DNA of 32,506 bases from Actinomycetota bacterium (GTDB taxonomy: Bacteria > Actinomycetota > Actinomycetes > Actinomycetales > Microbacteriaceae), in NCBI GenBank assembly GCA_041183925.1, contig JBEGKV010000001.1:1-32506 (forward strand), given 5' to 3'. The position numbers were made by a program, and so were the translations under genes. The notes under the pieces are model-generated. The model made no database searches. It saw only the letters and a list, made by a program, of their open reading frames with translations, and was not told where the DNA came from. Shown one piece after another: positions 3,224 through 30,864 of the stretch. The number at the start of each line of letters is the position of its first letter. The first letter of the stretch is position 1.

Positions 3224-3225
3224 GT

Positions 3226-4469: not shown

Positions 4470-4471
4470 GC

Positions 4472-12069: not shown

Positions 12070-12960
12070 TTAACCTGCGGAGGTCAGACCGAGGAGCCTC
12101 AATGCGTTTTCCCGCAAGATGAGGGGGCGAACCTCTTCCTTGAAGGGAGCATTCTCAAAGTCACTCAGCCAGCGATCCGGTGTCAGCAAAGGATAATCAG
12201 AGCCAAAGAGAACTTTGTTTTTGAGCAGCGAGTTTGCTTGGCGGACGAGTGCCTCGGGGAAGTACTTGGGGGACCAGCCTGAAAGGTCAATCCAGGTATT
12301 GGCCTTGTGTGTAGCTACTGCAATTGCTTCATCTTGCCAGGGGACGGAAGGGTGAGCCATGATGATCGGTAGCTCAGGGAACTGTGCAGCTACCTCGTCG
12401 AGATGAATCGGATTGGACAAGCCAATTCTCATTCCGGAACCTCCCGGAGTTCCAGCACCTATTCCAGTTTGTCCGGTGTGGAAAAGAGCTGGAACGCCAG
12501 CTTCCTGCAGTACCTCGTAGAGAGGGAAGACGGACTCATCATGGGGAGCAAAGTTCTGCACGGTGGGGTGAAACTTGAAACCTTTGACTCCCGCGTCCCC
12601 GATGAGCTTTTTTGCTAACTCAACTGCCTTCTTCGGCTGGAGCGGATCCACAGAGCCAAAGGGAATGAGGACATCGTTATTTGTGGCAGCGCCAGCTGCA
12701 ATCTCAAAGCTATCTATCGGGTTATGGCCAAGTGCCGTCTCCGCATCCACTGTGAAGACAACCGCAGCCATGTTGCGTTCGCGATAATAGTCAGCTACTT
12801 GGTCCAACGTGGGACGAGCAGGCTCAGCGCGGAAGTAGGCAGTTGCAGCATCAATCAGCTTCTGGGGAAGTGAGGTGTGGCCGTGAGCGTCAACCTCGAT
12901 GTGAACATGCATATCGAGGGCGACAAAGTTCTCCACGTCGAGTCCGTATTCATAGCTCAT
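12070..12960 (-). CDS. couO: Amidohydrolase-family 4-hydroxyphenyl-beta-ketoacyl-CoA hydrolase (CouO/PhdC-like)
   Basis: DMHVH, FGSVDP, GFKFHP, FHTGQTGIGAG, AHPSVPWQDEA, IDLSGWSPKYFP, FGSDYP. Confidence 0.8.
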   Translation of the reverse strand: MSYEYGLDVENFVALDMHVHIEVDAHGHTSLPQKLIDAATAYFRAEPARPTLDQVADYYRERNMAAVVFTVDAETALGHNPIDSFEIAAGAATNNDVLIPFGSVDPLQPKKAVELAKKLIGDAGVKGFKFHPTVQNFAPHDESVFPLYEVLQEAGVPALFHTGQTGIGAGTPGGSGMRIGLSNPIHLDEVAAQFPELPIIMAHPSVPWQDEAIAVATHKANTWIDLSGWSPKYFPEALVRQANSLLKNKVLFGSDYPLLTPDRWLSDFENAPFKEEVRPLILRENALRLLGLTSAG

Positions 12961-13009
12961 GAACTCATTATCTCCAGATTGGTGGTGCCACGTTCGTGAA
13001 GAATTACAT

Positions 13010-14998
13010 TCACGTGAGGACTTCCTTCAGAGCGGCGATGATGCCATCAAGATCATCCGGACGAACCAACACGCCCCGATCGATGGTTGTGCCCGTATCA
13101 ATGCCTTGCACCAAACGCTTAAGTGGAATCTCTAGGCGCTTACCCGTTGCTGTGCGCGGAACACTGGGGACCCACACAATGACGTCTGGCACGTGGCGCG
13201 GAGACAGCTCGGTGCGAATGAAGGTTTTCAGTGACTTTTCTGCGATTTCGCGGTCAACATCCCCCGCTGCGACAGCGAGTAAAACCAGCTTGCCCATTCC
13301 CCCTGCTGGATCCTCAAAATGCAGAACTAGTGAATCTTTGAGTTCTGGTCGCGGATCCAAGATGGCGTAAAACTCTGCCGTACCGAGTCGAACTCCACCA
13401 CGATTAAGGGTGGCATCACTGCGGCCAGTAATTGCCCACGTGTTGCGCTCAGTATGAATCAACCAGTCTCCATGACGCCACACCCCTGGCCACGTATCAA
13501 AATAGCTCGCCGAGTAGCGCTCATAATTCTCATCACCCCAGAAAAAAGAGGGCATCGAGGGTAGCGGCGCAACGCAGACTAACTCGCCAGGTTCACCCGT
13601 TACTTCTTGCCCGTCTGGGCCCCAGCTATAGACGGCTGCTCCCAGGGGTCGCACAGCCATCTCACCCGCGTTAACGGGAGAAAGCGGACTGCCGCAGACG
13701 AAGCCGCTACAAATATCTGTTCCGCCGGAAGCTGGTGCGAGCAGGAGTGAAGAATTGACTTCGGCGTAAACCCATCCAGCAACATCAGCTGCAAGGGGCG
13801 AACCAGAGCACTGTATTTCTCTCAGTCCTGAGAGGTCCCACGTTTTCCCGGGTGTCAGACCCGAATGTGCACACACTGCCAAATAGGCAGAGCCTGTGGT
13901 GAGGTAAGTGGACTTTGTTTCGGCCAAAATTGCCCACTGAGACCATGGACCATCAAGTGTTGGCCAACCGGGATCACCATCCATCAGCACCATGGAGGCA
14001 CCGACAAGAAGCGAAGAAACACTGAGATTCCACACCATCCAGCCGGTTGTTGAATACCAGAAAGTTCGGTCTCGGTCGGAGATATCAAAATGCAATGCAA
14101 TGTCCTTGAAGTGCTCCAAAAGAAGCCCCCCATGGCAGTGCACGATTGCTTTCGGTTTTCCCGTGGTGCCAGATGAAAAGAGAATAACGAGGGGATGCTC
14201 GAAAGATACGGAGACAAAGTCCATATCATCCCGGAAATGAGTGAACTCACCATAAGAGATCATCCCTGCTGGTATCGCAGTGTCCGCATCTAGATAGGGA
14301 AGCAATACGCTCTTCATGCCCGGAAGTGCGGCTCGGATGCGCGCAATCTCATCTTGTCGAGAGACAGCCTTCGCCCCCCATTGATATCCATCGACAGCGA
14401 TCATCAGGCTCGGTTTCAGCTGTTCGATACGATCCAATACGCTCTGCGGCCCCATCTCTGGGGGAACTGAGCACCAAATTGCTCCCAGTGATGCTGTGGC
14501 GAAATACAGAGCAACGGTCTGCGGGATATTAGGAAGGTAGCCAACAACTCGGTCGCCCTCCTTAACGCCTTGAGCTACGAGTCCTGTCCGCAATGATGCG
14601 ATTTCATCGAGAAGCTGCTGGCCCGTCCATTCAGACGAACCAACGGTTTGACTCCGATTGATCAGGATGGGGGTACTTGCTTTGTCAAGAAGTGCCCGGT
14701 AGATATGTTCCGAATAGTTGATCCGCGCACCTGGGAACCATTGCGCACCTGGCATCGTTTTCTGACCGAGAACTGCGCTGTGAGGAGCGTGGGAAATGAT
14801 CTCGAAGTGATCCCACAACTGTTGCCAAAAGTCTTCGAGATTCTCAACTGACCATTCCCAGGCCTGGTCGTAGGTGTCGAAGTGGATCTCGTATGTGGCT
14901 TCAATTTTTGCCAGGAAACGGCCCATCTCAGTGGTATTCCATTGGTCACGGGGCAAGGCCGGGCGAAGTTCTGTTCCTAAAGCTGTCGACATTGACAT
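13010..14998 (-). CDS. Acetoacetate-CoA-ligase-family acyl-CoA synthetase (probable aroyl-acetate CoA ligase)
   Basis: WFPGARINYSE, FSSGTTGKPKAIVH, YSTTGWMVWN, SGGTDIC, VWRHGDW, GRSDATLNRGGVRLGTAE; substrate inferred from context. Confidence 0.85.
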   Translation of the reverse strand: MSMSTALGTELRPALPRDQWNTTEMGRFLAKIEATYEIHFDTYDQAWEWSVENLEDFWQQLWDHFEIISHAPHSAVLGQKTMPGAQWFPGARINYSEHIYRALLDKASTPILINRSQTVGSSEWTGQQLLDEIASLRTGLVAQGVKEGDRVVGYLPNIPQTVALYFATASLGAIWCSVPPEMGPQSVLDRIEQLKPSLMIAVDGYQWGAKAVSRQDEIARIRAALPGMKSVLLPYLDADTAIPAGMISYGEFTHFRDDMDFVSVSFEHPLVILFSSGTTGKPKAIVHCHGGLLLEHFKDIALHFDISDRDRTFWYSTTGWMVWNLSVSSLLVGASMVLMDGDPGWPTLDGPWSQWAILAETKSTYLTTGSAYLAVCAHSGLTPGKTWDLSGLREIQCSGSPLAADVAGWVYAEVNSSLLLAPASGGTDICSGFVCGSPLSPVNAGEMAVRPLGAAVYSWGPDGQEVTGEPGELVCVAPLPSMPSFFWGDENYERYSASYFDTWPGVWRHGDWLIHTERNTWAITGRSDATLNRGGVRLGTAEFYAILDPRPELKDSLVLHFEDPAGGMGKLVLLAVAAGDVDREIAEKSLKTFIRTELSPRHVPDVIVWVPSVPRTATGKRLEIPLKRLVQGIDTGTTIDRGVLVRPDDLDGIIAALKEVLT

Positions 14999-15021
14999 TC
15001 CTTTTCAGTTCACCAGAGTGT

Positions 15022-15804
15022 CTAACTCTGGCCTGTTGCTTTCAATTCTTCGAGACGAGCTGCAAACCCATGGCATGCATTAAGAAGCGCAGCGGAACAC
15101 TCTTCAATATCGGTGCGCGCGTCATAATTGACCACACCACATGCAGCTTCGATTCGCCCGTTGACGAACACGGGAGCCGCGATTGCTACAGCCCCTGGAA
15201 CATATTCGCTTGCCGAGTAGGCATAACCGCGGTCACGAACATGCGAGAGCTCACGGAGCAAAGAACGCTTGCTGGTGATTGTTTCGTCGGTATAGCTGGT
15301 TAAGGGCATGCCGACAACATCATCGATCAGGGATGTTTCTGCATACGCGAGAAGGACTTGACCCACGGCCGTGGCATGGAGGGGAATACGAGCCCCAATG
15401 CGACTTTGAATGGGAACCCCCACTTCACTGGTGAGCTTTTCCACATAAACCGCATCCATGCCATCGAGCACAGCAAGCTGCACCGTTTCATGCGTGACGT
15501 ATTGCAGGTTGAGTAAGAAAGGCATCGCTATTTCTCGCAAGCGACCGTGGACGGGGGTGAGGAGCCCCATCTCCCACAACTTGATGCCCAAGCTATAAAA
15601 ATGAGAAGCATCGCGCTGCAAGAATCCGCCTTCTTCGAGCTCTCCGGCAAGCCGGAATACTGTGGCTACGGGAAGCCCCGTCGCTCGAGAGATCTGGCTC
15701 AGAGTAAGCCGCGGGGTCAGTGCGCTGAATGCTCCGAGCACGCTCAACGCCCTCGCCGTGACGGACTTCGAGGGTGTGGGCGGAGTTGAGCTTGTGGTCG
15801 ACAT
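15022..15804 (-). CDS. IclR-family regulator divergent from carboxylase operon
   Basis: SVTARALSVLGAF HTH; PLHATAVGQVLLAY. Confidence 0.92.
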   Translation of the reverse strand: MSTTSSTPPTPSKSVTARALSVLGAFSALTPRLTLSQISRATGLPVATVFRLAGELEEGGFLQRDASHFYSLGIKLWEMGLLTPVHGRLREIAMPFLLNLQYVTHETVQLAVLDGMDAVYVEKLTSEVGVPIQSRIGARIPLHATAVGQVLLAYAETSLIDDVVGMPLTSYTDETITSKRSLLRELSHVRDRGYAYSASEYVPGAVAIAAPVFVNGRIEAACGVVNYDARTDIEECSAALLNACHGFAARLEELKATGQS

Positions 15805-15849
15805 TGTGCTTTCACTCTAAGTCAGAACAGGTGATTTATGTAGAAATAG

Positions 15850-15868
15850 TTTTTCACTGAATGAAAAA
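15850..15868. promoter_or_regulatory. Putative IclR operator of the carboxylase module
   Basis: TTTTTCA-ctgaa-TGAAAAA; core TCACTGAATGA also found at 30045-30055. Confidence 0.7.
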
Positions 15869-15956
15869 ATTACTTGCACTGCACTGTAATACCGGGGAAA
15901 CTGAGGACAGGTTTACAACGTTGTCATAGTCGACACCACCGAATATGAGGTCCCCC

Positions 15957-16421
15957 ATGTCTGAAACTCCAAGCTGGCAAGAACTGCTTGATCTGGTTGA
16001 GCAGCTCAATAACAGCGACTACGAGAATGCCAGCGTTCAATTCGGTAACGTCTCGGTCCGTCTCTCAAAGAATGAGCCATTCGTTGAAACGGCATCGCCA
16101 GTTGTTGCAGCACTATCCCCTGTTTCGGCGCCTGTAGTAAATGCTGCAACGCCTGCCACCGTTACATCTGCAGCTCCAGTAGGTGACACCATTGACGCCC
16201 CCATGATTGGTGTTTTTTACCGCCGCCCCTCACCCGGAGCAGACGAATTCGTCAAGCCAGGCGATACAGTCACTGCTGAAACCACAATCGGCATTATCGA
16301 GATCATGAAGCTCATGAATCCTGTAGTTGCTGGAAAAGCTGGCGTGCTGGGTGAATTCTTGGTGACTGACTCGAACCCGGTTGAGTTCGGCCAGCCCCTC
16401 GTCCAGATCACTCTCAACTAG
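15957..16421 (+). CDS. Biotin carboxyl carrier protein
   Basis: Ala/Pro linker, APMIGVFYRRPSPG, EIMKLMN biotinyl-lysine motif, VEFGQPL. Confidence 0.92.
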   Translation: MSETPSWQELLDLVEQLNNSDYENASVQFGNVSVRLSKNEPFVETASPVVAALSPVSAPVVNAATPATVTSAAPVGDTIDAPMIGVFYRRPSPGADEFVKPGDTVTAETTIGIIEIMKLMNPVVAGKAGVLGEFLVTDSNPVEFGQPLVQITLN

Positions 16422-16429
16422 TCCAGATC

Positions 16430-17803
16430 ATGACTACTTCACACAAGCCCGTTGTGTTGGTTGCTAACCGCGGAGAAATCGCGATGCGTATCATCGCAGC
16501 AGCCCGCCGAATCGGCGCCTCCCCCGTTCTTGCGGCCAGCGTTGCGGACGCGAATTCCCCCGCCGCCCGCGCTGCTGACCGCGTTGTCGTCATCGGTGCC
16601 GCGCAAGCCAACCTGTCTTATTTGCGGCCAGAACAAGTTGCTCAGGCTGCTGTGAATGTCGGTGCAACCGTGGTTCACCCCGGTTATGGCTTCTTGAGCG
16701 AGCAACCCAAGCTTTGTGAGCTTCTGGAAGAAGAAGGTATTGCGTTTGCTGGCCCTCGCCCGGAAACCCTGCGTGCTGTGGGGGATAAGGGAAGTGCCCG
16801 CCTCGTCGCCATTGAGGCAAACGTTCCGGTCGCACAGGGTATAGAGATCAATGACCCTAGCGAGGTTCGCTCTCTCGGGGAAAAACTCGGCTTCCCTCTG
16901 CTCATCAAAGCTATTCATGGTGGCGGGGGCCGTGGGATTCGTTTGGTGACCAACCTGGATGAACTGGAAGAGCTTGCTCCCCAAGCTGCACAAGAAGCTG
17001 AGGTTGCCTTTGGCAATGGGGCCCTTTACCTCGAGCGTTATTACGGCCTTGCACGTCACGTGGAAGTTCAGGTATTTGGCGACGGCGAAGGAAATGCATG
17101 GATCTTTGGTGACCGCGACTGCTCCGTGCAGCGCCGTCACCAGAAGCTCATTGAAGAATGCCCTGCACCGGGCTTGAGTGAAGCCCGCCGCACGATTCTG
17201 CACGACTCTTCTCGACGACTGGTGAAAGCACTGAAATATCGAGGTGCTGGAACTGTGGAATTCTTAGTCGACACCCAAAGCGAGGACGTTGTCTTCCTAG
17301 AAGTCAACGCCCGTATTCAGGTTGAACATCCAGTCACTGAAGAAGCCTTCGGAGTGGACCTCGTTGCTGCGCAGCTGCGTTTAGCGTTGGGGATGGATCC
17401 TGAATTGCCGGAGGTGGGACCTGTTCCACCTGCCAGTGTGATTGAACTTCGCATTAATTCAGAAGACCCTGACAACAACTTCATGCCGAATTCGGGAGTA
17501 CTCACTGAGGTGAGCTGGCCCAAGGGTCCCGGTATCCGCATCGATACTCAAGTAGAAACCGGCTACAGCTTCCCGCCTTACTACGACAGCTTGATGGCGA
17601 AACTCATTGTGCGAGCTCATGACCGTAAAGCTGCGGTAGCAGCCGCACTGGCTGCGGCACAGAACACCACCATTGCCGGACTTAAGACCACCTTGCCCAT
17701 GCTCGAATATGTACTTTCACACGACGACTTCATTGCGGGAGAAATCCCAACCAGCTGGTTTGGTCCCATCTGGGAAGAACGAAAGGTAACCGACAATGTC
17801 TGA
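16430..17803 (+). CDS. Biotin carboxylase subunit
   Basis: VANRGEIA, HPGYGFLSE, GGGGRGIR, RDCSVQRRHQK, EVNARIQVEHPVTE, YYDSLMAK. Confidence 0.95.
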   Translation: MTTSHKPVVLVANRGEIAMRIIAAARRIGASPVLAASVADANSPAARAADRVVVIGAAQANLSYLRPEQVAQAAVNVGATVVHPGYGFLSEQPKLCELLEEEGIAFAGPRPETLRAVGDKGSARLVAIEANVPVAQGIEINDPSEVRSLGEKLGFPLLIKAIHGGGGRGIRLVTNLDELEELAPQAAQEAEVAFGNGALYLERYYGLARHVEVQVFGDGEGNAWIFGDRDCSVQRRHQKLIEECPAPGLSEARRTILHDSSRRLVKALKYRGAGTVEFLVDTQSEDVVFLEVNARIQVEHPVTEEAFGVDLVAAQLRLALGMDPELPEVGPVPPASVIELRINSEDPDNNFMPNSGVLTEVSWPKGPGIRIDTQVETGYSFPPYYDSLMAKLIVRAHDRKAAVAAALAAAQNTTIAGLKTTLPMLEYVLSHDDFIAGEIPTSWFGPIWEERKVTDNV

Positions 17804-19340
17804 GATGAATCTGACCGGCGAACAGCGCCGCCAAGGGCCCATCAAGATCGTCGACACCAGTATTCGTGATGGTAACCAAAGCCTTTGGGCTGCCACCGGG
17901 ATCACCACTGGCATGGCCGAGGCAATGGCGCCAATTTATGAACGTATGGGTTTACACGCGCTGGACTTCACCAGCTCCACCCATCTCGTCATGGGGACAA
18001 AGTTCCACGGCGAAAACCCCTGGGAACGCATCAGCCGTGTTCGTGCAGCAGCTCCCAACACACACCTTTCCTGCATCACCACGGGCATGCGCTTTATGTC
18101 GTGGGAAAAGGCAGAAGAGTCGGTGTATCGCATGTCTTTGCGCGTGATGGCTCGGCATGGCCTGAGCCGACTCATGATTGCCGAGCCGGGCAACGACATA
18201 GAGCAAACCATGAAGGTAGCGCGTTGGGCTAAGCAAGAGGGTATTTCAGATGTGCTCGCCGGAGTGGTCTACACAACCAGCCCCGTGCACACTGACGAGA
18301 AGTTCCTGGCCGCAACTACCGCTTATGCCAAATGCGTAGATATTGACTCTGTCTATCTCAAAGACCCTGGCGGTCTCCTCACCGCTGAACGCACTCGGGA
18401 GCTTGTTCCCAAGATGCGAACAGCGTTGGGCACTAAGACATTTGAACTGCACAGCCACTGCACAACAGGGGCAGCACCTCACCTCTATCTGGTGGCGGCC
18501 GAGCTAGGCGTGGACGTCCTACACACGGGCATGGGGCCCCTCTCGAACGGAACTGCCCAGCCCAGTTTGGAACACCTGTTAGGTAACCTCGATGCCCTGG
18601 GTATTGATGTGGATATTGATCGAGAAGCAGCTGCCGAAGGATCCTCACTGCTATGGGATTTTGCCAAGAAACAGAAGCTGCTGCCGGGAGCTCCCACCGA
18701 ATATGACCTGAGCTTCCACAGCCACCAAGTTCCCGGTGGAATGATGGGTACGCTCAAGCGTCAGCTTGCCGAAATTGGCATGAGCGATGCTCTCCCAGCC
18801 GTGATTGAGGAGGCAGGTCGCGTCCGTGCTGACCTGGGATACCCCATTATGGTGACTCCCTTTAGTCAGTTTGTGGGAAGTCAAGCCCTGATGAACGTGT
18901 TGGCTGCCAAGAGTGGGCAGGAGCGTTACAGCCGAATTCCCGACGAAGTTGTGAAATTTGTTGTCGGTGACTTTGGTTCACCAGAAGGTGAGATCAACCC
19001 TGAGATTCTCCAGCGCGTGGCCGATAACCCTCGTGTGGCGGAGCTCAAAGCAGCGCAGCGCGAGCGAAGCATCGAAGAGCTGCACGCCGAATACACTGGC
19101 AAGTTTGGTAGCAAGCTCAGCGAGGAAGATCTTCTTCTGCGCATCGTGATGCCTCACGACCAAGCAGAAATTGCTATCAACGCAGCGCCTGCTCCTGCCT
19201 GGTCCCCCGGTGCTCGCCTCTCCATGGCTTCTGGTTCCGTCAATTCTGTTCAAACATTCATTGATGCCGCTAACGCTTTGCCAACCTGGAAGTCACTCTC
19301 CGTCCAGCGCGATGGCGCAACTGTTTCACTCTCTCGATAA
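17796..19340 (+). CDS. Pyruvate-carboxylase-B/OadA-like carboxyltransferase (probable aryl methyl ketone carboxylase subunit)
   Basis: DTSIRDGNQSL, ENPWERI, LKDPGG, ELHSHCTTG, HQVPGGM, PIMVTPFSQFVG; no fused biotinyl domain. Confidence 0.88.
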   Translation: MSEMNLTGEQRRQGPIKIVDTSIRDGNQSLWAATGITTGMAEAMAPIYERMGLHALDFTSSTHLVMGTKFHGENPWERISRVRAAAPNTHLSCITTGMRFMSWEKAEESVYRMSLRVMARHGLSRLMIAEPGNDIEQTMKVARWAKQEGISDVLAGVVYTTSPVHTDEKFLAATTAYAKCVDIDSVYLKDPGGLLTAERTRELVPKMRTALGTKTFELHSHCTTGAAPHLYLVAAELGVDVLHTGMGPLSNGTAQPSLEHLLGNLDALGIDVDIDREAAAEGSSLLWDFAKKQKLLPGAPTEYDLSFHSHQVPGGMMGTLKRQLAEIGMSDALPAVIEEAGRVRADLGYPIMVTPFSQFVGSQALMNVLAAKSGQERYSRIPDEVVKFVVGDFGSPEGEINPEILQRVADNPRVAELKAAQRERSIEELHAEYTGKFGSKLSEEDLLLRIVMPHDQAEIAINAAPAPAWSPGARLSMASGSVNSVQTFIDAANALPTWKSLSVQRDGATVSLSR

Positions 19341-19355
19341 CAACTAGGAATACTC

Positions 19356-20231
19356 ATGACCACCAGCAGCTTGCTCTCTCGCCTCAAGGCAACCCAAGGC
19401 ATCATGTTCGACATCGATGGCTGCCTCGTCATCTCTGATGGTCCCAGCGGTGCTGGCGGAAGCGTGCTTCCGGGCGCCATTGAATCCATCAAGTTTGCGC
19501 AGGACAGCGGCAGGGCCTACTGTGTGTTCACCAACGGAACCGCTCAGCGCCCCAAAGAAATTGCGCACCACTTGCGTGAAATGGGCTTCAACATTCCTGA
19601 CGAACTTGTCTTCACTCCCGCTGTCGTGGCAGCAGAAGTGATGAAAGAAAAATATGGAGATCAGCCCATCCTTGTCTTTGCCGCTGAGGGCATGCTCGAG
19701 GACTTCCGCGAGCGCGGTGTCAATGTGGTTGACGTCCCCGCCGCGATCGAGGGCGCCGAGCACGGTGCAGTTGCCGTGGTAATCGGCTGGGACACCAACT
19801 TCGGTAAAGACAAAATCCAGCTTGCTGCTGAAGCAATCCGCGATGGTGCGGAACTGTATTGCACGAGCTATGCGCCCATGTTTGCCTCTGCAGACCGTCT
19901 CAACGTGGGTGTCTCGGGCTTTATTACCTCTGGCCTCCTGTTTGTCACCGGCAAGAAGGACTTCGAGATTCTAGGGAAGCCTTCTCAGCACTCCATGAAT
20001 GTTGTGAGCCGCGTGTTGGATACTCCTCAGGAGAACATCCTGGTGATTGGTGACGACATCAAACTGGAGTCCACCATGGCACGTAATGCGGGAGCACTGG
20101 CTGGGCTGGTTTTGACCGGTACCAGCTCACGAGCAGATGCAGAACTTGCAGATCCTGCGGTTCAGCCTGAGCTCATTGTGGAAAGCATGACTGAGCTCCT
20201 CGAGCTATTTACGCAGGCAGATAACAGCTGA
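19356..20231 (+). CDS. HAD-IIA (NagD-like) phosphatase, probable aryl-phosphate phosphatase
   Basis: FDIDGCL, FTNG, GKPS, VIGDD, LVLTG motifs. Confidence 0.88.
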   Translation: MTTSSLLSRLKATQGIMFDIDGCLVISDGPSGAGGSVLPGAIESIKFAQDSGRAYCVFTNGTAQRPKEIAHHLREMGFNIPDELVFTPAVVAAEVMKEKYGDQPILVFAAEGMLEDFRERGVNVVDVPAAIEGAEHGAVAVVIGWDTNFGKDKIQLAAEAIRDGAELYCTSYAPMFASADRLNVGVSGFITSGLLFVTGKKDFEILGKPSQHSMNVVSRVLDTPQENILVIGDDIKLESTMARNAGALAGLVLTGTSSRADAELADPAVQPELIVESMTELLELFTQADNS

Positions 20232-20252
20232 TTTCATTGCCGCTGAGGACAA

Positions 20253-21992: not shown

Positions 21993-22024
21993 GCGAAATC
22001 CGTTTCGATTGTAGAACTAATGAA

Positions 22025-22684
22025 TTAGAGAACGTCGAGGCACAGCACACGAATAGAGTGCTGCAGTTCTGCCTCAGCCATGGCGCGACCAGTTGGCGTA
22101 ATCATCTCGGGCATGATGTCAACTTCGAGTTTGTGTCTAATCTGCTGAGGGGTTTTGCCAAACCATTCCGCGGAGAAACCAAGCCCTACAGGGTTAAACC
22201 GCCAGAGACGATCTGCATCTCGGACAATTGAATCTTCAATGCTGTAACTTTCAGAGCGAGTGTCGTGACCGTCAATGATGTCCGTGACCTTCTTAATAAA
22301 GGCTTCGTCATAGCCACATCCGGGCAGAATCTCCCGGGCAATATCGCAGCCAAAAATTTCGTGCTGAACACGAACGTCGCTGGTCATGAAGTTTTCGCTG
22401 CGAAAGCCTTCAGAGAGAATTTTCTCCTCGTCCACGCGGGACCAACCTGCGTCATGCAGCATGGCTGCAACACGAGTTACTTTTTCATCCGCCTCGGGGT
22501 GAGCATCAAGGAGGAACTCTGCAAAAAGCAGAGTGAGGGGCAAGTGAATGTCATTCATCCGGGAGCGGGTATAAGGCTCCACGGCTTTCCAGATGTTGTC
22601 GACGTTGGTATAGGTTCCCGTAGGAAGCGCCCCATTGCCCAGAGTGGGAACATCCTTCAATGAGTGAGTAAATTCCATAGCCAT
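22025..22684 (-). CDS. creD: HD-domain phosphohydrolase (CreD-like)
   Basis: NDIH, MLHDAGWS, HE, IIDGHDTR, DADRLWR; sits between ALDH and ferredoxin reductase as in the cre cluster. Confidence 0.78.
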   Translation of the reverse strand: MAMEFTHSLKDVPTLGNGALPTGTYTNVDNIWKAVEPYTRSRMNDIHLPLTLLFAEFLLDAHPEADEKVTRVAAMLHDAGWSRVDEEKILSEGFRSENFMTSDVRVQHEIFGCDIAREILPGCGYDEAFIKKVTDIIDGHDTRSESYSIEDSIVRDADRLWRFNPVGLGFSAEWFGKTPQQIRHKLEVDIMPEMITPTGRAMAEAELQHSIRVLCLDVL

Positions 22685-22695
22685 GAGGCGTTCTC

Positions 22696-23934
22696 CTAAT
22701 CCGTGAAGAGGGTCTTAAGCGCAACGGAAGAATCCGCTGCACGATCTGCGGGAATGTTTTGACCTGCGGTGAGGGCACGGCGCACAGCCATATAGTCGCT
22801 GACGTCATTGACCGCATCCACCGCGATAATTCGGCCGTTCTTGTAATACAGCACGCTGAATTTACCCTCATCAGGGTTGCCGCGAAGAACCTGCTGGTCA
22901 TAGCCCTGCAGCAGTCCGGCCATCTGAAGCTTGAGGTCTGCCTGATCACTCCAGAACCAGGGCACTGCGCGATATTCGTCCGTTCCACCTCGCAAGGTTT
23001 TTGCGGCTAACTTTGCCTGGTCAACGGCGTTCTGCACAGACTCAAGCATCACCATGGATTCGCCTGTGAGCGGGTGAGGAAGCATCGCCACGTCTCCACA
23101 GGCCACAATTCGAGGATCTGACGTGCGGGCGTGAGAATCAACAACTATGGCGCCGTTAGCGCTGATTTCCAACCCGAGTTGCTGAGCAAGCTCACCACGG
23201 GGGCTCACTCCGATACCCACCATCACTGCATCCGCAGGAATCACGGTGCCGTCTTCGAGTTCCACACCGGTAACTCTCCCGCTGTTGCCGATCAGCCGGG
23301 AAACTTTCTTTTCCAGCAAAATATGGGCACCGCGTTGTGTGTGTGCCTTGAGGAAGAAATCGCTGACCACAGGGCCGACAGCGCGAGACATCAGGCGGTC
23401 ACGAGAGTGAACTACGGTGACGTTTTTGTTGTATTTACGCGCAACAGCAGCAACCTCGAGACCGATAAAGCCTCCCCCGATGACAACAATATTTTCTATT
23501 GATTCCCACCGTGCTTTGAGAGCGTTGGCGTCATCAAGACCGCGCATATACAGCACACCGTCAAGGTCAGCACCTTCGCAGGTCAGCCGCTTGGGATCTG
23601 AACCTGTCGCAAGTGCCAGCTGAGAAAAAGGAAGTTCCCGACCGGTTTCGGTTATCGCTACACCGTGGTTCTGCCCCCATGCAAGGGAGACAACCTTTTC
23701 AGAGGGAATAACGACAATGTTGTTGTCAACATAAAACTGTGGGTTTCTCAGTTCCAAAGATTCAGCATCTGCGTCGCCGGCGAGGTAGGCCTTCGACAGA
23801 GGAGGGCGTTGATAGGGACCGTGGTTTTCTTCCCCGACAATCGTGACTGTGCCATCGAAGCCGTCCTCACGCAAGGTGACGGCTATCTGCATTCCTGCTT
23901 GCCCGCCACCGATGATGAGGATGTGCTCGGTCAT
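22696..23934 (-). CDS. creE: FAD-dependent ferredoxin reductase (P450 class I partner)
   Basis: GGGQAG, PYQRPPLSK, LATGS, GGGFIGLE, ESVQNA, VPWFWSDQ; letter assigned by synteny from memory. Confidence 0.85.
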   Translation of the reverse strand: MTEHILIIGGGQAGMQIAVTLREDGFDGTVTIVGEENHGPYQRPPLSKAYLAGDADAESLELRNPQFYVDNNIVVIPSEKVVSLAWGQNHGVAITETGRELPFSQLALATGSDPKRLTCEGADLDGVLYMRGLDDANALKARWESIENIVVIGGGFIGLEVAAVARKYNKNVTVVHSRDRLMSRAVGPVVSDFFLKAHTQRGAHILLEKKVSRLIGNSGRVTGVELEDGTVIPADAVMVGIGVSPRGELAQQLGLEISANGAIVVDSHARTSDPRIVACGDVAMLPHPLTGESMVMLESVQNAVDQAKLAAKTLRGGTDEYRAVPWFWSDQADLKLQMAGLLQGYDQQVLRGNPDEGKFSVLYYKNGRIIAVDAVNDVSDYMAVRRALTAGQNIPADRAADSSVALKTLFTD

Positions 23935-23938
23935 TGCA

Positions 23939-24262
23939 TTAGACCTGTTCAGGAGCGATAGTGACACGCATTCCGTCGAGCTCGCTACGCAGTTTAATCT
24001 GGCAACTCAGACGAGAAGTAGGGCGGCGTTCCGCGGCGGCACCATCCAACATGTCATCCTCGAGATCGCCCGCTTCGCCAACCTCATCCGAGAAAGCTTC
24101 GTCCACATAGACGTGGCAGGTTGCGCACGCACAGGCGCCACCACATTCAGCAACGATGCCCTTCACACCATTCTTGACAGCGAGGTCCATGACAGAGTCG
24201 CCGTCGCGGCCTTCAAGGGTGGTTTCAGTTCCGTCTGGAGAGATATAAGTAACGCTAGGCAT
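23939..24262 (-). CDS. creF: [2Fe-2S] putidaredoxin-type ferredoxin
   Basis: CGGACACATCH...SRLSCQ; letter assigned by synteny from memory. Confidence 0.88.
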   Translation of the reverse strand: MPSVTYISPDGTETTLEGRDGDSVMDLAVKNGVKGIVAECGGACACATCHVYVDEAFSDEVGEAGDLEDDMLDGAAAERRPTSRLSCQIKLRSELDGMRVTIAPEQV

Positions 24263-24286
24263 GATGTTCTTTCTTGAGGTGAAGGG

Positions 24287-25036
24287 TTAGATAAATTGCT
24301 TGCCACCATCAACGATGATGGTTTGGCCGGTGATGTATCCAGCATTGCTGCTGGCAAGGAAGAGGGCAGTGCCCACAATGTCTTCCGGCTGGCTCGCGCG
24401 CTTGATGGAGCGGCTACTCACACCGTAGTTGGCGGCGTCATCGATTTGAGCCAGGCTTGCCTCGGTGAGAGTAAAGCCAGGGGCAATCGCATTGACCGTG
24501 ACATTCTTGGCCCCTGCTTCACGAGCCATGACACGGGTCATGCCCACGAGTGCACCCTTCGACGTGACGTAGTGCATCCACAGTGGTGACCCACTGAAGA
24601 AGGTGGCTGATGCAATGTTGATAATCGATCCGCCGTTCATGTGCTTGTAGCAGGCAGCCGATGCTAGCCACGGTCCCTTGACGTTGACAGCCATGACTTT
24701 GTCCCACTCATCTGGGTCTATATCCCAGAAGTCACTGCGTTCGAGAGTGGCATAGATTGCCGCGTTATTGATCAGCACGTCTACCGAACCAAAAGCGTCC
24801 AGAGTGGCGGCGACCATAGCTTCACAGCTCGACTTATCGGCCACATTGACCGATACAGCTATCGCCTGGGCACCTTCGGCTTCAACTAGCGCAACAGTTT
24901 CTGCAGCACCTGCAGAATTCATGTCGGCAATGATGAGGTTGGCACCTTCCTGAGCAAACCCCAGCGCAAATGCGCGGCCAAGGCCACCTGCGGCACCGGT
25001 AATGATGACAGTTTTACCACTGAGTTGTTGTGACAT
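24287..25036 (-). CDS. creG: SDR-family alcohol dehydrogenase (CreG-like)
   Basis: TGAAGGLG, NNAA, YVTSK, NAIAPG, ITGQTIIVDGG. Confidence 0.82.
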   Translation of the reverse strand: MSQQLSGKTVIITGAAGGLGRAFALGFAQEGANLIIADMNSAGAAETVALVEAEGAQAIAVSVNVADKSSCEAMVAATLDAFGSVDVLINNAAIYATLERSDFWDIDPDEWDKVMAVNVKGPWLASAACYKHMNGGSIINIASATFFSGSPLWMHYVTSKGALVGMTRVMAREAGAKNVTVNAIAPGFTLTEASLAQIDDAANYGVSSRSIKRASQPEDIVGTALFLASSNAGYITGQTIIVDGGKQFI

Positions 25037-25742
25037 GTGCACGTCCTCTTTCTTGCATGTCGTTCATCTGAGAGCTGATGTCCATGGATTCCAGAGCAAT
25101 CAATGCCAAAGACATTGCTTTCCCTGCGTCAGTGAAGAGATCGTCATAGGCGCGAAACGCATTGATGCGAAGCGATTCTTCACGGTCAAGTCCAAAGCGG
25201 GGCATCGCAACATCGACGCCATGGGGCGACACCCGCCAAATCTTATCGGCGTCTTTGACACAACTGTCATTGATGCTCAACGTCGTGAGTCGAGTGTCAT
25301 GGCCATCGATGATGTCGCAAATTTCAGCGATATCTGTTTCGGAATAGCCGACCTCGGTCAGAATTTCTCGGGCAATACGCGCACCCTCTTTTTCATGTTG
25401 CACAACAGCCCAGGTGTAGGTGCCATCTCTGTCAGGAGCGATGGCTTGGAAGGCAATCTCTTCCTCGACGGTAGACCAGCCGGTGTCGTGCAAAATGATG
25501 GCAGGTAACACAATGTGTTCATGAGCCTCAGGAATACGGGTGAGGAGCTGGTTCGCAATCGCAAAGGAATACAACGTGTGTACATCGTTGTCCCGGGTCT
25601 GTAAATAGGGAGTAGCGAGCTCCCAGATGCGAGCATCCCGTTCCCCCATAGCCACCAGGCCGGGGACGTTCTGCCACGAAGGAATCTTGTGGGAGACGTC
25701 ACGACCAAGATGGTTGACGGGGGAACGGGATACACGCTTCAT
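25014..25742 (-). CDS. Second HD-domain phosphohydrolase (CreD paralog)
   Basis: NDVH, ILHDTGWS, HE, IIDGHDTR, DADKIWR. Confidence 0.85.
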   Translation of the reverse strand: MKRVSRSPVNHLGRDVSHKIPSWQNVPGLVAMGERDARIWELATPYLQTRDNDVHTLYSFAIANQLLTRIPEAHEHIVLPAIILHDTGWSTVEEEIAFQAIAPDRDGTYTWAVVQHEKEGARIAREILTEVGYSETDIAEICDIIDGHDTRLTTLSINDSCVKDADKIWRVSPHGVDVAMPRFGLDREESLRINAFRAYDDLFTDAGKAMSLALIALESMDISSQMNDMQERGRAHVTTTQW

Positions 25743-25755
25743 GGTGTGGTGATAA

Positions 25756-27579
25756 CTACTTACTCAGAATCTCGACGGTTCCGTTGGTGCCATCAACACG
25801 CAACGTCATACCCGTCTTGATCGAGGTCGACGCGTTACCAGTACCGGTCACAGCTGGCAGACCATACTCACGGCAGACGATAGCTGCGTGAGACATCATG
25901 CCTCCGATGTCAGTAACAGTGGCGCTGATCTTTCCAAAGACAGGACCCCACGAAGGTGCCGTCACAGGAGCGACCAGGATTTCTCCCTGCTGGAGTTCCC
26001 CGAGCTGGTCGGGGCTGAAGATAACGCGTGCCTTACCTTCTGCAACACCACCTGATGCAGCCATACCCTTGAGCTCGTTCTTGTTTCCGGAGTCGGAACC
26101 AAGCCACTGCTGAACCTGCTCAGTTGTAATACCCCACAGCATGACAGTGAAGGGTTCGCTGATTTCAGCAGGTGGTTCGTTGAACGCAGGTGCTGGACGG
26201 TTCTGTGCCAGGGCGTTGATGATCTTTGCACGGCGTGCAATCTCAGCAGGCCAGTACTTAGGTCCGATGGGCTCCGTACCAACAGCCCATGCGTTTGCGT
26301 AGTCAAACATAACTTCGCGAACACGGTTGCGGTCGATGTAGAGAATGTCTTCTGCGTTCTCCCAGAAGCCCTGGTCTGCAAGAAGCTGTCCCAGCTGACG
26401 AACCTTGCGCCAGAAGACACCCATGGTCCAGTGCTCAATGTAGAAGTTGTGGTCTTCGACGTAGGGGTACACAGCGCGTGCGAGACCGAGCTTGCCTTGG
26501 AAGGTTTCCAGTGCTTCGCCGGACAGTGCCTCTGAATACTCGTCTGCAATGCGGTCGCGCTCGATAATGAGAGCGTCCTTGGGGCGGTGGAGCTGCTCAC
26601 CCTTGGCTGCACGCTCGACATAGTCAGCGATATAACCCACGGGAAGATCCAGGTTGTCACGCCAGTAGACATCGGTTCCGTAGAAACCGTTACCGACGGT
26701 GTAGTTGAACCATGGGTCTTGAGCTGCTTCAAACGCTTTGAGCCATTCAGCGCCCTGAGGTGCTGCTTCAACTGCGGCAAGAGTCTTCTCGGCGTTGATG
26801 TGGCCGGCGAACTGAGCGGTGAGGCCCAGCTTGACAGCGAGGTCGGCGAGGTTCTTCAGTTCGTCATCTGGACGGAAAAGCACTGAGTCAACACCCATCA
26901 CCATCTTGGCGATAGCAAGGTCAGGAATTCCAGGGAATGCTTCCTTGCAGAAACCGAAGAAGTCTAGGTACGCAACGTAACCCAGGTTAAGGAACTCAAA
27001 GTGGTGCTCCCAGTTGCGGTAAACAAGGTTGATCAGACGGTCGTAATCTTCAAACATCTTGACGGAAGGGTCCATACCCACACCGTTTTTGATGTCCTCG
27101 AGGGGAACCATGTCGGGAAGGGCCTCGAAGTTGATGGCGTCAATCTCTTCAATGTTCTTGAGAACTTTGGTCTTCCAGTTCTCGAGCAAGGTGCCCCAGT
27201 TCTGGAAGTAGTGCCCAGCTCGCTCCATGAAGTGTGGAACGCGGTCACCGATGAGCTCAGGCGCTACACCGACGGGGCTGAAGTAGTTGTAACCCATGTG
27301 GATACGGAAGTCGATACCGTTCGCAGGGGGAACAATGTAGTGGCGAGTGTTGTACGCACCGAGGCAGCGAGAAGCGAACTCCACGCCGATAACCTCGAAG
27401 GGCTTGAACACATTAGGCCAGTGCTGAGAGTCGCAGAACCAGAACTTCTGCTCTTCCTCTTTGCGCTGGTTGTCCTGGAAAACCAGGTAATAGGGGTAGA
27501 GCTCTTGCCATCCCTCAGCACCCTTGGGGGTTTTGAGTGAATAGGGCGAGGGGAAGCTCTTAGCGGCACGTGGCGACAT
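25756..27579 (-). CDS. creH: Alkylphenol kinase / arylphosphate synthase, substrate-binding plus phospho-His subunit
   Basis: C-terminal PEP-utilizer mobile domain TDIGGMMSHAAIVCREYGLPAV, VDGTNG; N-terminus resembles phenylphosphate synthase A. Confidence 0.87.
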   Translation of the reverse strand: MSPRAAKSFPSPYSLKTPKGAEGWQELYPYYLVFQDNQRKEEEQKFWFCDSQHWPNVFKPFEVIGVEFASRCLGAYNTRHYIVPPANGIDFRIHMGYNYFSPVGVAPELIGDRVPHFMERAGHYFQNWGTLLENWKTKVLKNIEEIDAINFEALPDMVPLEDIKNGVGMDPSVKMFEDYDRLINLVYRNWEHHFEFLNLGYVAYLDFFGFCKEAFPGIPDLAIAKMVMGVDSVLFRPDDELKNLADLAVKLGLTAQFAGHINAEKTLAAVEAAPQGAEWLKAFEAAQDPWFNYTVGNGFYGTDVYWRDNLDLPVGYIADYVERAAKGEQLHRPKDALIIERDRIADEYSEALSGEALETFQGKLGLARAVYPYVEDHNFYIEHWTMGVFWRKVRQLGQLLADQGFWENAEDILYIDRNRVREVMFDYANAWAVGTEPIGPKYWPAEIARRAKIINALAQNRPAPAFNEPPAEISEPFTVMLWGITTEQVQQWLGSDSGNKNELKGMAASGGVAEGKARVIFSPDQLGELQQGEILVAPVTAPSWGPVFGKISATVTDIGGMMSHAAIVCREYGLPAVTGTGNASTSIKTGMTLRVDGTNGTVEILSK

Positions 27580-27624
27580 TGCGACGACCTTTCTTCTGTT
27601 CTCGAGTTAGGTGTTTGAGTAGTA

Positions 27625-28698
27625 CTACTTTTTGTTTTTTTCTAGTGAAGCCAGGAGCGAGCGCGTAATGGCCTCGATTCCTGCCCCACCAGAAAGACTT
27701 GCTACCGGCGTCTCCTTCTGCGACCACACCGTTTCAGGTCGGCTTTGCAGAAGAAGAACGTTTGCGCCTGCGGGCAGATCGGCATCGATCGCCCATTCGA
27801 CGTCTTGAACGCAGCCATAATGCTTATCAGCTGCTTTGGCGAGCTTGGCAACAGAGATGATCTCCTCTTCGCTCAAGCTGGGAGAATTGCGGCGCTCTTC
27901 CTCTACTTCGCGGCGAGTGATAGCGCCCCGTCCATTGGGAACGAGCTCTTCATGCTTGTCAGAAACGATGCGGCGAACCACCGACAGCATGACCTTGTCG
28001 ACAACATAGTTATCTGGGGTTACTTCACCAGAAACGACCATTTCGCCTAGGCCCCAACTGGAGTCAATGACGATTTTGGTGCGGTCTCCTGTAGTGGGAT
28101 CAATCGTCATGGCTACGCCAGAAGAACGAGAGTTCACCATCTTCTGCACGGCTACTGCGATGGAAAGACCTTCGCTAGGGATGTTATTAGCTTCACGGTA
28201 ACTGATAGCGCGTGCGGTGTAGAGAGATGCCCAGCATTCACGAATCTTCATGAGCACATTTTGTTCACCGATAATCCAGAGGTAGGTGTCTTGCTGGCCA
28301 GCAAAGCTAGCGTCAGGCAAGTCTTCAGCAGTTGCTGAGGAGCGCACAGCTACGGGAACTTCTCCGCCACACAGTTCCATGAGGGCTCGATATGCCCCCA
28401 CTACTTCGTGACGGACTGCGTCAGGTACTTCTTGCGTCAGGATGAGTTCACGAATAAGTGCTGACTGGCGATCCAGCTCTGCAGGATTGTCGTAGTTCAA
28501 ATCTTTGAGGTGCTTGGCGATTTGGTCATGCAGCCGGGTGTCATTCATGACCGCGTCGAATGCATCGGTAGTGACAGCAAATCCGGGAGGAACGGGCATC
28601 CCCGCATTGGTCATGATGACCAGTGACGTGCACTTTCCGCCCAAACGTTCGTGTTGGGGAGTCTCAGTGCTATCAAAGGGAAAAGAGTAAAGCGACAT
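27625..28698 (-). CDS. creI: Alkylphenol kinase ATP-binding (PEP synthase N-terminal-like) subunit
   Basis: LGGK, PVPPGF, VAVRSSATAEDLPDASFAGQQDT, WGLGEMVVSG, QDVEWA, LQSRPET; AAGGA RBS before ATG 28698. Confidence 0.88.
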   Translation of the reverse strand: MSLYSFPFDSTETPQHERLGGKCTSLVIMTNAGMPVPPGFAVTTDAFDAVMNDTRLHDQIAKHLKDLNYDNPAELDRQSALIRELILTQEVPDAVRHEVVGAYRALMELCGGEVPVAVRSSATAEDLPDASFAGQQDTYLWIIGEQNVLMKIRECWASLYTARAISYREANNIPSEGLSIAVAVQKMVNSRSSGVAMTIDPTTGDRTKIVIDSSWGLGEMVVSGEVTPDNYVVDKVMLSVVRRIVSDKHEELVPNGRGAITRREVEEERRNSPSLSEEEIISVAKLAKAADKHYGCVQDVEWAIDADLPAGANVLLLQSRPETVWSQKETPVASLSGGAGIEAITRSLLASLEKNKK

Positions 28699-28726
28699 TG
28701 CTTGATTCCTTAGAGGGTTGTGATTT

Positions 28727-29974: not shown

Positions 29975-30041
29975 AACCCATTCCTCCTTGAATACGTTGA
30001 TTCTCATCTTCCACCTGCGTGCAAGGAGTGTATACAGGAAT

Positions 30042-30058
30042 TTCTCACTGAATGAGAA
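30042..30058. promoter_or_regulatory. Putative IclR operator upstream of the P450/cre operon
   Basis: TTCTCA-ctgaa-TGAGAA, just upstream of a candidate -10 TACACT (30027-30032, minus strand). Confidence 0.7.
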
Positions 30059-30093
30059 GGTGGAAAGGAATTTTAGGGAGAAGTTAAAAACGC

Positions 30094-30864
30094 CTAGTGG
30101 AGGCCCGCGGGACCGCCACGCATGACCAATTCAATGCGCTCCACAGTGCCCTTCAACATGGGCAACAAACGCTGTACTTCACGAGATCTATTGGCATCAA
30201 AAACCAGGCCAACAGCAGCAACGACGGCATTATTGAAAATCACAGGTACCGCTAAAGACATGGCGTCTAAGCGCATCTGTTCATGAGTGACCGAATAGTT
30301 TGTCTGACGAACCTCGGCGATAACCTCGCGAAGAACATCAGGATCAGTCACCGTCTTCGGCGTGGGAGCTTCCAACTCCCGCTCGAGATAAGCATCCACG
30401 AACCAATCAGGCTGTGAAGCAAGCAGGACCCGCCCCACGGCAGTTGCGTGAAGTGGAAGCCGGCCTCCTAAGCGAGAGATCTGGGGCATTTTCTTGGTGC
30501 CATAAATTTTGTCCACATACAGGGACTGGACTCCCTCGCGGATCGCCATGTGAACGTTTTCATGCGCCAAGTCGAACAAGTCCTGAAGGAAGGGGTGTGC
30601 CCGGTCCCGAAGTCGACGACCAGCCATTTGACCCAGCTCCCAGATTCGAAAGCCAATCTGATATTTACCGTCTGAACCGCGGCGTAACCCGCCCCACTCC
30701 TCGAGCTCAGAAATGAGTCGATAGGTCGTGGATAACGGAAGCCCTGAGCGTTGCGCAATGCGGGCAACAGAAAGAGAACCGGTGGTGTTTTCAAATGCAG
30801 CAAGAATGCTTAGCGCTCGCGCGGTGACGGATTGCCCGCTTTCACGAAACTCTGCCTCAGCCAT
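30094..30864 (-). CDS. creR: IclR-family regulator (CreR-like)
   Basis: SVTARALSILAAF HTH; LPLHATAVGRVLLA; GGAGG RBS before ATG 30864. Confidence 0.85.
   Translation of the reverse strand: MAEAEFRESGQSVTARALSILAAFENTTGSLSVARIAQRSGLPLSTTYRLISELEEWGGLRRGSDGKYQIGFRIWELGQMAGRRLRDRAHPFLQDLFDLAHENVHMAIREGVQSLYVDKIYGTKKMPQISRLGGRLPLHATAVGRVLLASQPDWFVDAYLERELEAPTPKTVTDPDVLREVIAEVRQTNYSVTHEQMRLDAMSLAVPVIFNNAVVAAVGLVFDANRSREVQRLLPMLKGTVERIELVMRGGPAGLH

Follow-up and report, generated by a model that had tools for sequence, protein, structure and literature searches.

One phenol kinase between a CreJ-type P450 operon and an Hpe-type carboxylase module: a candidate phosphate-handle pathway for p-cresol and 4-ethylphenol in a freshwater actinobacterium

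How is a biotin-dependent carboxylase module of the Hpe type supplied with phosphorylated substrate at a locus that lacks the Hpe kinase genes? This question is raised by contig JBEGKV010000001.1 of a Microbacteriaceae genome (GenBank assembly GCA_041183925.1), of which we analyzed the stretch from position 1 to 32,506 (here called the window). The window contains an island in which a cytochrome P450 operon of the CreJ type and a carboxylase module of the Hpe type are joined, with only one phenol kinase between them. Judged from its genes, the island likely encodes a branched pathway in which a phosphate handle would be used in the degradation of small para-substituted phenols. Its two parts have been characterized separately: the Cre pathway of Corynebacterium glutamicum (creC-J and creR) degrades 4-cresol via aryl phosphates, and the Hpe pathway of Rhodococcus rhodochrous GD02 and Actinomadura macra (hpeHICBADEF; PMC9618137) and the Acv pathway of Sphingobium SYK-6 contain the carboxylase (see also bioRxiv 10.1101/2022.04.28.489975 and PMC8461187). 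A preliminary description of the window had proposed that one kinase feeds both arms, and every gene that it named was found in its place by Pfam and NCBIfam scans of the 34 open reading frames of the window.

The right arm is encoded on the minus strand. It starts with an IclR family regulator (30094-30864; Pfam IclR) at the creR position, which was constant across all cre loci fetched, and continues with the P450 (28727-29974), a kinase ATP-grasp subunit of the CreI type (27625-28698; PPDK_N, E = 3e-110; 43% identical to A. macra HpeI) and the substrate-binding/His-swivel kinase subunit (25756-27579; PEP-utilizers and NF006150; 45% identical to A. macra HpeH). Downstream of these lie an HD-domain hydrolase (25014-25742; Pfam HD), an SDR alcohol dehydrogenase at the creG position (24287-25036; Pfam adh_short, synteny and the creG annotation in PMC7764795), a 2Fe-2S ferredoxin (23939-24262; Pfam Fer2) and a ferredoxin reductase (22696-23934; Pyr_redox_2 and Reductase_C) as P450 partners, a second HD-domain protein, the aryl-phosphate hydrolase of the creD position (22025-22684; Pfam HD and the order creC-creD-creE), and an aldehyde dehydrogenase (ALDH) at the creC position (20253-21992; family and synteny). 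The creG, creC and creD assignments are thus based on family and synteny, without direct alignment to the C. glutamicum proteins. Apart from the first HD gene, which is additional and lies between creH and creG, the arm matches the gene order tabulated for C. glutamicum in PMC7764795 (creJ-I-H-G-ferredoxin and reductase-D-C).

The P450 matched the CreJ structures 5XJN and 5GWE in the Protein Data Bank (PDB) with an E value of 4e-161, compared to 1e-67 for the next family. Its predicted model (pLDDT 85) could be superimposed on 5GWE with a Z score of 53.3 and a root mean square deviation of 2.2 over 399 residues, of which 57% were identical in the structure alignment; over the CreJ structures as a whole, the values were Z 53, a deviation of 2.2 to 2.3 and 398 to 399 aligned residues. 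Residues S106, S109, R194 and S261, which have a role in phosphate/substrate binding, were invariant in 18 sequences. The kinase belongs to the Cre side as well. Its H subunit carries the motif GGMMSHAA, in which a Ser precedes the catalytic His as in CreH, whereas HpeH has a Cys at this position (PMC12167813). In FastTree phylogenies, with C. glutamicum CreH itself outside the tree, the H subunit fell into a P450-linked clade (support of 1.0) separate from the clade of A. macra HpeH, the members of which showed Cys-His wherever the motif was read. The comparison of Cre and Hpe kinases suggested in the preliminary description thus places it with Cre. A genome with a far closer CreJ (E = 1e-201 to 5GWE) encodes a kinase that is 65% identical to that of the window. 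The window therefore contains what defines a Cre locus, namely, a CreJ family P450 with ferredoxin and reductase, a two-subunit kinase of the CreH clade, and SDR, ALDH and HD genes in order. It differs from the C. glutamicum system in being joined to a carboxylase module and to 4,5-route ring cleavage, and in its distinct allele clade.

The left arm comprises a plus-strand run (15945-20231) of four genes: the biotin carboxyl carrier protein (BCCP) (15945-16421; IMKLM motif, TIGR00531 score of 114.9 versus a cutoff of 115.2), the biotin carboxylase (16430-17803), the carboxyltransferase (CT) (17796-19340) and a HAD-IIA phosphatase orthologous to HpeD (19356-20231; TIGR01460 below cutoff). Divergent from this run, the minus strand (15804-12070) encodes an IclR regulator of the hpe arm (15022-15804), an acetoacetate-CoA-ligase-type enzyme with the putative role of HpeE (13010-14998) and an amidohydrolase that would act as HpeF/CouO (12070-12960). 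Identities to the A. macra cluster, which is a complete hpe cluster (PMC9618137) with genes that convert acetovanillone and 4-hydroxyacetophenone in a host (PMC13101465), were 74% for the biotin carboxylase, 65% for the CT (which falls into the same clade), 59% for the hydrolase, 58% for the IclR regulator (located upstream of hpeH in A. macra), 52% for the HAD protein, 49% for BCCP and 40% for the ligase. HpeF of GD02 is 95% identical to CouO (PMC9618137). The three-subunit carboxylase of the HpeCBA clade, the phosphatase, the CoA ligase and the CouO-type hydrolase are thus all present, and pobA is adjacent as in the known systems. A dedicated kinase (HpeHI/AcvAB or MarK) is absent from the window locus, and hpeEF lie on the opposite strand.

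The pyruvate carboxylase fold of the CT and a ligase that exceeds the cutoffs for acetoacetate-CoA ligase (TIGR01217 and NF002937), with only 40% identity to A. macra HpeE, could mean that pyruvate or some other central metabolite is the substrate of the carboxylase and that the ligase is a true acetoacetate-CoA ligase. The preliminary description had listed action of the carboxylase on pyruvate or acyl-CoAs as an outcome that would overturn its proposal. We consider such a reading hardly credible: the CT stayed below every curated cutoff for pyruvate carboxylase and OadA (best score of 282.6 versus 402 for NF006761) and is 65% identical to the A. macra Hpe subunit, and the genome has a pyruvate carboxylase as a separate gene on contig C6, the CT domain of which is only 26 to 28% identical to the CT of the island. 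Moreover, HpeE of GD02 (PMC9618137) and AcsA1 of Aromatoleum aromaticum EbN1 (PMC10715001) likewise resemble acetoacetate-CoA ligases.

Which kinase, then, serves the carboxylase? HpeCBA of GD02 did not transform unphosphorylated substrates, and its kcat/KM was 34 per mM per s for 4-phospho-acetophenone and 3.9 per mM per s for phospho-acetovanillone, an approximately tenfold preference (PMC9618137). In the window, the site that holds hpeH or hpeHI in relatives is a 140-bp divergent spacer (15805-15944) according to locus comparison. A single kinase pair, as noted in the preliminary description, was found both in the window's own genome, which is 68% complete, and in two genomes of the same genus with the same cluster (G004 and G009, both 99% complete), each of which has one full-length kinase H gene and one PPDK_N gene. 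Searches with the window or HpeH-clade queries revealed no separate Hpe kinase in G000, G001, G004, G009, G068 and G070, and the MarK family was found in none of five genomes tested. A dedicated kinase elsewhere in the genome, which would have spoken against a shared one, was accordingly not detected in G004 or G009. Because the carboxylase needs a phosphate ester, the hpeH slot is a spacer, only one kinase H is present and MarK is missing, the Cre kinase alone among known phenol kinases can feed the carboxylase in window-type genomes. We regard the sharing of one kinase by both arms as well supported and very probable.

The relatives display the steps by which such a locus could arise. In the Alpinimonas genome G065 (locus L033), hpeHI is located at the carboxylase and creHI elsewhere. 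Four of four genomes (G061 to G064) lack hpeI; their hpeH lies at the carboxylase, and their one creI belongs to a cre operon far from it. In the window type both hpeH and hpeI are gone and the modules adjoin. An orphan hpeH directly before the BCCP gene and without hpeI was observed at L022, L024, L025, L026, L027, L028, L029 and L032, all from related freshwater Microbacteriaceae. Since HpeH alone transfers phosphate between phenols (PMC12167813), such an orphan may use cresyl phosphate as a donor, or it may borrow CreI. The reverse loss was found in G558 (96% complete), a genome from a 400-genome sample of the class: here a kinase-less creR-P450-SDR-ferredoxin-reductase-ALDH module lies beside hpeHI-CBAD, and the only kinase H belongs to the HpeH clade. 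Thus, where the modules adjoin, either parent kinase can be the missing one. In that sample, a CT of at least 52% identity was found in 4 of the 400 genomes and a CreJ of at least 53% also in 4; both occurred together in one genome, where they are adjacent. No further case of the reverse layout was found among seven genomes of the family and order of G558. Between its kinase-less cre module and hpeH, G558 carries a gene of the flavin amine-oxidase family (L090:9527-11299).

Joined P450 and carboxylase clusters, for which the preliminary description had suggested a search, recur outside this genus. At three Microbacterium loci (L042 to L044), the cre operon is divergent from a kinase-less carboxylase run. 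Genomes of this type have one kinase H in G068 and in G070; G069 was discarded as a single-kinase case, as it has three cre-type kinases. A metagenome survey, in which 80 of 557 loci were kept, yielded P450 and kinase subunit together at 27 of the 80, and 4 of these 27, mostly on short contigs, also had Hpe-type genes. In the closely related L123 and L127, the CT precedes P450-creI by 166 bp on the same strand; the order in L118 is creH-SDR-CoA ligase-P450-HD, with the CoA ligase within the cre run; and in L125 the cre run converges on HAD-CoA ligase. The contigs of L118 and L125 end before any carboxylase, and their Hpe link is the CoA ligase (in L125 also HAD). The Microbacterium loci and the metagenome contigs show independent fusions, and the fused cluster is real, intact and recurrent.

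What would such a cluster do? We propose that the CreHI-type dikinase accepts p-cresol and 4-ethylphenol for phosphorylation, and probably also free 4-hydroxyacetophenone, a role suggested by orthology and by necessity. By analogy with C. glutamicum CreJ, the P450 with its ferredoxin and reductase would then hydroxylate the benzylic carbon of the aryl phosphate. In a methyl arm, SDR, ALDH and HD phosphatase would lead to 4-hydroxybenzoate. In an ethyl arm, the secondary alcohol would be oxidized to 4-acetylphenyl phosphate by the SDR or the P450, which is the least supported step; HpeCBA would carboxylate this ketone and HpeD remove the phosphate, as demonstrated for 4-phospho-acetophenone with the GD02 orthologs (PMC9618137); and the CoA ligase and amidohydrolase would release 4-hydroxybenzoate and acetyl-CoA. 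For GD02 itself, the ligase and hydrolase steps have been proposed, and the enzymes were not purified. Breakdown would be completed by PobA (4-hydroxybenzoate 3-monooxygenase; plus strand, 10819-12009; NF006091 above cutoff) and the products of a minus-strand protocatechuate 4,5-cleavage operon (2273-8151), which consists of ligK, ligU, two amidohydrolase genes with a putative ligJ/ligI role, ligA, ligB and a ligC-like gene (ligK, OMA tautomerase, ligA and the ligB family above NCBIfam cutoffs, the rest by Pfam). Both belong to the island and had been omitted from the preliminary description. The Hpe module would have lost its kinase because the Cre kinase provides the phosphate; a hand-over to the carboxylase and an induction of both arms are parts of this proposal.

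CreJ hydroxylates the benzylic carbon of ethylphenyl phosphates. PDB entry 5XJN is titled 'CREJ in complex with (4-ethylphenyl) dihydrogen phosphate', and CreHI/CreJ/CreD oxidize 'a range of p- and m-alkylphenols' (PMC9549646). The 4-ethylphenol route put forward in the preliminary description is plausible and the reading we favor; however, the same genes fit free 4-hydroxyacetophenone that enters at the shared kinase. This is the main rival: dissolved matter originating from lignin would provide free 4-hydroxyacetophenone (or acetovanillone), which the Cre kinase would phosphorylate for use by the Hpe arm, while the P450 arm serves p-cresol and 4-ethylphenol plays a minor role. HpeHI is promiscuous, with an activity of 0.18 U/mg for cresol compared to 0.69 U/mg for 4-hydroxyacetophenone (about a quarter), and such promiscuity alone permits the loss of either kinase. 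The arms are also under separate regulators; however, since the kinase lies in the creR-led operon, the free ketone would have to induce that operon. In favor of this rival, the relative G004 has a VanA-type gene about 16 kb from hpeF, but VanA_C was found in just one of five genomes tested. Nine positions of the kinase are specific to carboxylase-bearing genomes (at five of these, 18 other cre kinases show no variation) and could reflect adaptation to the ketone, yet the P450 also has 12 such positions. In addition, the same-strand layouts carboxyltransferase-P450-kinase and kinase-SDR-CoA ligase-P450 point to a single substrate flow. We therefore consider a sharing of the kinase alone, with a minor role of 4-ethylphenol, possible but on the unlikely side. 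The two readings overlap, in that free ketone can probably enter the pathway as well. As for the kinase itself, the substitutions at residues 63, 70, 90, 100 and 142 of its H subunit (25756-27579) are common to 13 kinases of carboxylase-bearing genomes, the sites being invariant in the 18 other cre kinases; these residues may be regarded as candidates for a specificity shift.

Several observations weigh against a 4-ethylphenol pathway. The presumed CreJ/CreG step to the ketone is backed by a PDB title and a secondary source, and kinase promiscuity is enough to explain kinase loss without ethylphenol flux. Because the arms converge and have separate IclR regulators, they do not form one transcript, and the HD phosphatases might strip the phosphate before carboxylation. 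The modules usually occur apart: most cre loci have no carboxylase nearby, CreJ was found in none of five genomes with canonical or truncated hpe loci, and G018 and G151 have retained both kinases, with some 20 kb between their cre operon and an Acv-like cluster. Only four genera contributed the 14 genomes with a carboxylase to the family sample described below, and the grouping of the Microbacterium kinase alleles with the window clade is weakly supported (0.85 in one tree and 0.13 in another). Physical linkage alone can give co-segregation. G066 and G067, finally, have carboxylase genes and no kinase H. As kinase-free counterexamples these two genomes were rejected: they owe their state to a deletion that fused the creC end with the 3′ half of the BCCP gene, and thus represent damaged descendants of the joined cluster. 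With all this taken into account, the full 4-ethylphenol route still appears to us rather probable as the physiological function.

The distribution of the modules suggests that they travel together. In a family sample of 400 genomes, 14 had a CT of at least 67% identity, and a cre-clade kinase was present in 13 of these 14 compared to 30 of the 400 overall. Within the genus, CreJ was found in 13 of 13 genomes; the allele was 91 to 100% identical in the four with the carboxylase and 64 to 65% in the other nine, three of which are 64 to 78% complete. In two cre-only genomes that were fetched, creC faces pobA directly, so the Hpe block would be an accessory insert between creC and pobA, as far as gene order indicates. 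A quick CreJ tree contained a clade of 13 alleles (SH-aLRT of 99), all from carboxylase-bearing genomes, with the cre-only alleles outside. A DNA tree of one gene, purL, scattered the four carriers and paired G000 with the cre-only G005 (0.99). Because the CreJ alleles group by carboxylase presence while purL scatters the carriers, the cassette appears to move as a unit, replacing the resident cre operon.

Could the Hpe arm be a decaying remnant, left after the loss of hpeHI and adjoining cre only because the region beside pobA and lig is a hotspot of aromatic catabolism? The island indeed varies between strains, with a 3.6-kb insert between hpeE and hpeF in L019 and L020 and a different left flank in G004, and G066 and G067 have carboxylase genes without any kinase H. 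However, these two are deletion products of the fused cluster, none of the hpe frames is disrupted, and the catalytic subunits share 94 to 96% identity across four genomes that differ by 12 to 14% in purL DNA. Decay is thus a very unlikely explanation. For the most far-reaching version of the proposed pathway, we see an even chance. According to this version, an aerobic pathway that carries one phosphate handle through kinase, P450, dehydrogenase and carboxylase (4-ethylphenol to 4-hydroxybenzoate and acetyl-CoA) has arisen by several independent assemblies in which one or the other parent kinase was dropped, and its cassette moves between streamlined freshwater Aurantimicrobium and puts alleles tuned to ethyl/acetyl substrates in place of the resident cre operon.

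The preliminary description knew the modules only as separate systems, and a description of a joined Cre and Hpe route for 4-ethylphenol was not found in the literature, most subscription papers being out of reach. Its statement was slightly too strong in view of two precedents. The legend of SI Fig. S5 (2022, PMC9618137), in a figure of hpe-homologue clusters, calls the gray genes of the Klenkia soli DSM 45843 cluster cre homologous; this case is known from the legend text only, and the same source lists the Klenkia kinase as substrate unknown and proposes no pathway in its accessible part. The anaerobic p-ethylphenol pathway of A. aromaticum EbN1 (EmhCF, Hped1, HacABC/Xcc, AcsA1 and TioL1; PMC10715001) leads from ethylphenol via the benzylic alcohol to 4-hydroxyacetophenone, which is processed by a biotin carboxylase and as a CoA ester with loss of acetyl-CoA, the same chemistry from the ketone onward. 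Unlike the pathway proposed here, EbN1 uses an O2-independent methylenehydroxylase on the free phenol, with no P450 acting on a phosphate ester, and a thiolase that yields 4-hydroxybenzoyl-CoA. Kinase genes cluster with the EbN1 carboxylase, and its substrate may be phosphorylated (PMC9618137). Neither an EmhCF methylenehydroxylase nor a TioL1 thiolase was found among the 34 window proteins scanned, the search being limited to the window. Other aerobic 4-ethylphenol routes are the Aph meta-cleavage pathway (Rhodococcus EP4) and the hydroquinone route of Pseudomonas putida JD1 (PMC6710988 and PMC13101518), the latter also via 4-hydroxyacetophenone. These share the growth substrate and employ ring hydroxylation or conversion to hydroquinone, and the accessible portions mention no phosphorylation or carboxylation. 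R. rhodochrous GD02 does not grow on 4-ethylphenol (PMC9618137), and a search of the A. macra genome yielded no CreJ. In a survey (PMC12624787), Alpinimonas is listed with a cluster that includes a kinase of its own; the names Aurantimicrobium, Klenkia and schleiferi are absent from three of its files, and 'CreH' and 'ethylphenol' from the main text. All parts are thus known, and their arrangement has been hinted at once in print, as far as we found, without being interpreted or tested.

If the proposal is correct, the island would raise to three the aerobic routes for 4-ethylphenol, which is formed when lignin is depolymerized reductively. The compound would enter the protocatechuate funnel; for engineering, this is preferred to the meta-cleavage of alkylcatechols. 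The proposal would also directly explain why phosphate is spent on these substrates, a costly step for which the Hpe papers see no explanation: the phosphate would already be present after the CreJ step. A phenol-trapping kinase operon is kept in every tested genome of this small-genome freshwater actinobacterial genus. The idea is directly testable, as the fused cluster occurs in cultured strains (named loci L019, L020 and L044), among them Aurantimicrobium minutum MWH-Bo1 and MWH-Tana7 and Microbacterium schleiferi JCM 9175.

The joining of the two arms does not depend on a single assembly. The window is contig C1 of a 1.16-Mb genome, and the HAD-ALDH junction, where the plus-strand carboxylase run and the ALDH end (20253) converge at a distance of 21 bp, is spanned by contigs from two further freshwater studies (X4 record 18 and X5 record 25). 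Within the runs, intergenic distances are −23 to 49 bp, except for 119 bp between creR and the P450 gene. In comparison with loci named Aurantimicrobium minutum and uncultured Aurantimicrobium, most cluster proteins were 84 to 97% identical, BCCP 74 to 79% and one ferredoxin 78%. Nearly all sequencing runs that contain the cluster stretch are freshwater metagenomes; two metatranscriptome runs contained short contigs only, mostly 88 to 95% alike to the cluster. A scan of the locus for promoters and terminators gave results at chance level. A 579-aa ALDH with a genuine 92-aa duplication was rejected: because the copies of the 276-bp in-frame tandem repeat (about 21120-21671) differ at 45 of 276 sites, mostly third positions, the enzyme has 487 aa in the relatives L019 and L020, and a near-identical (99+%) contig of run X1 jumps from 21109 to 21386 and omits the repeat, we regard the duplication as an assembly artifact.

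Some further features of the cre and hpe loci were observed. The two HD paralogs of the window (25014-25742, the second CreD-like one, and 22025-22684) are 39% identical. The extra one has no fixed place in cre loci, and 10 of its sites are specific to carboxylase-bearing genomes; it possibly provides a second specificity or acts as a heterodimer partner. On Rhodococcus plasmids (L047 and L048), toluene monooxygenase clusters flank cre operons, suggesting a flow from toluene via p-cresol into Cre. L183 and L184 (G513 and G599) hold kinase pairs with 54% identity to the window H subunit in genomes in which neither CreJ nor an Hpe carboxylase was found. In the hpe-type clusters L092 and L093 (G720 and G573), BCCP is directly followed by the CT, with no biotin carboxylase gene in the locus. 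Between pobA and hpeF, G004 carries a VanA-type oxygenase pair, a second LigAB-like dioxygenase, a sugar ABC transporter and transketolase genes (L181:6928-9050 and L011:7086-9044). Next to ligC, the window has an open reading frame for 259 aa (1423-2202) without a Pfam or NCBIfam match, homologs of which lie near cre/lig genes in L109 and L111. Two IclR genes separate pobA from the lig operon, and between them lies an MntA-HepT (type VII) toxin-antitoxin pair (9055-9869), which is lacking at that position in G004 and is also present in G002, G005 and G009.

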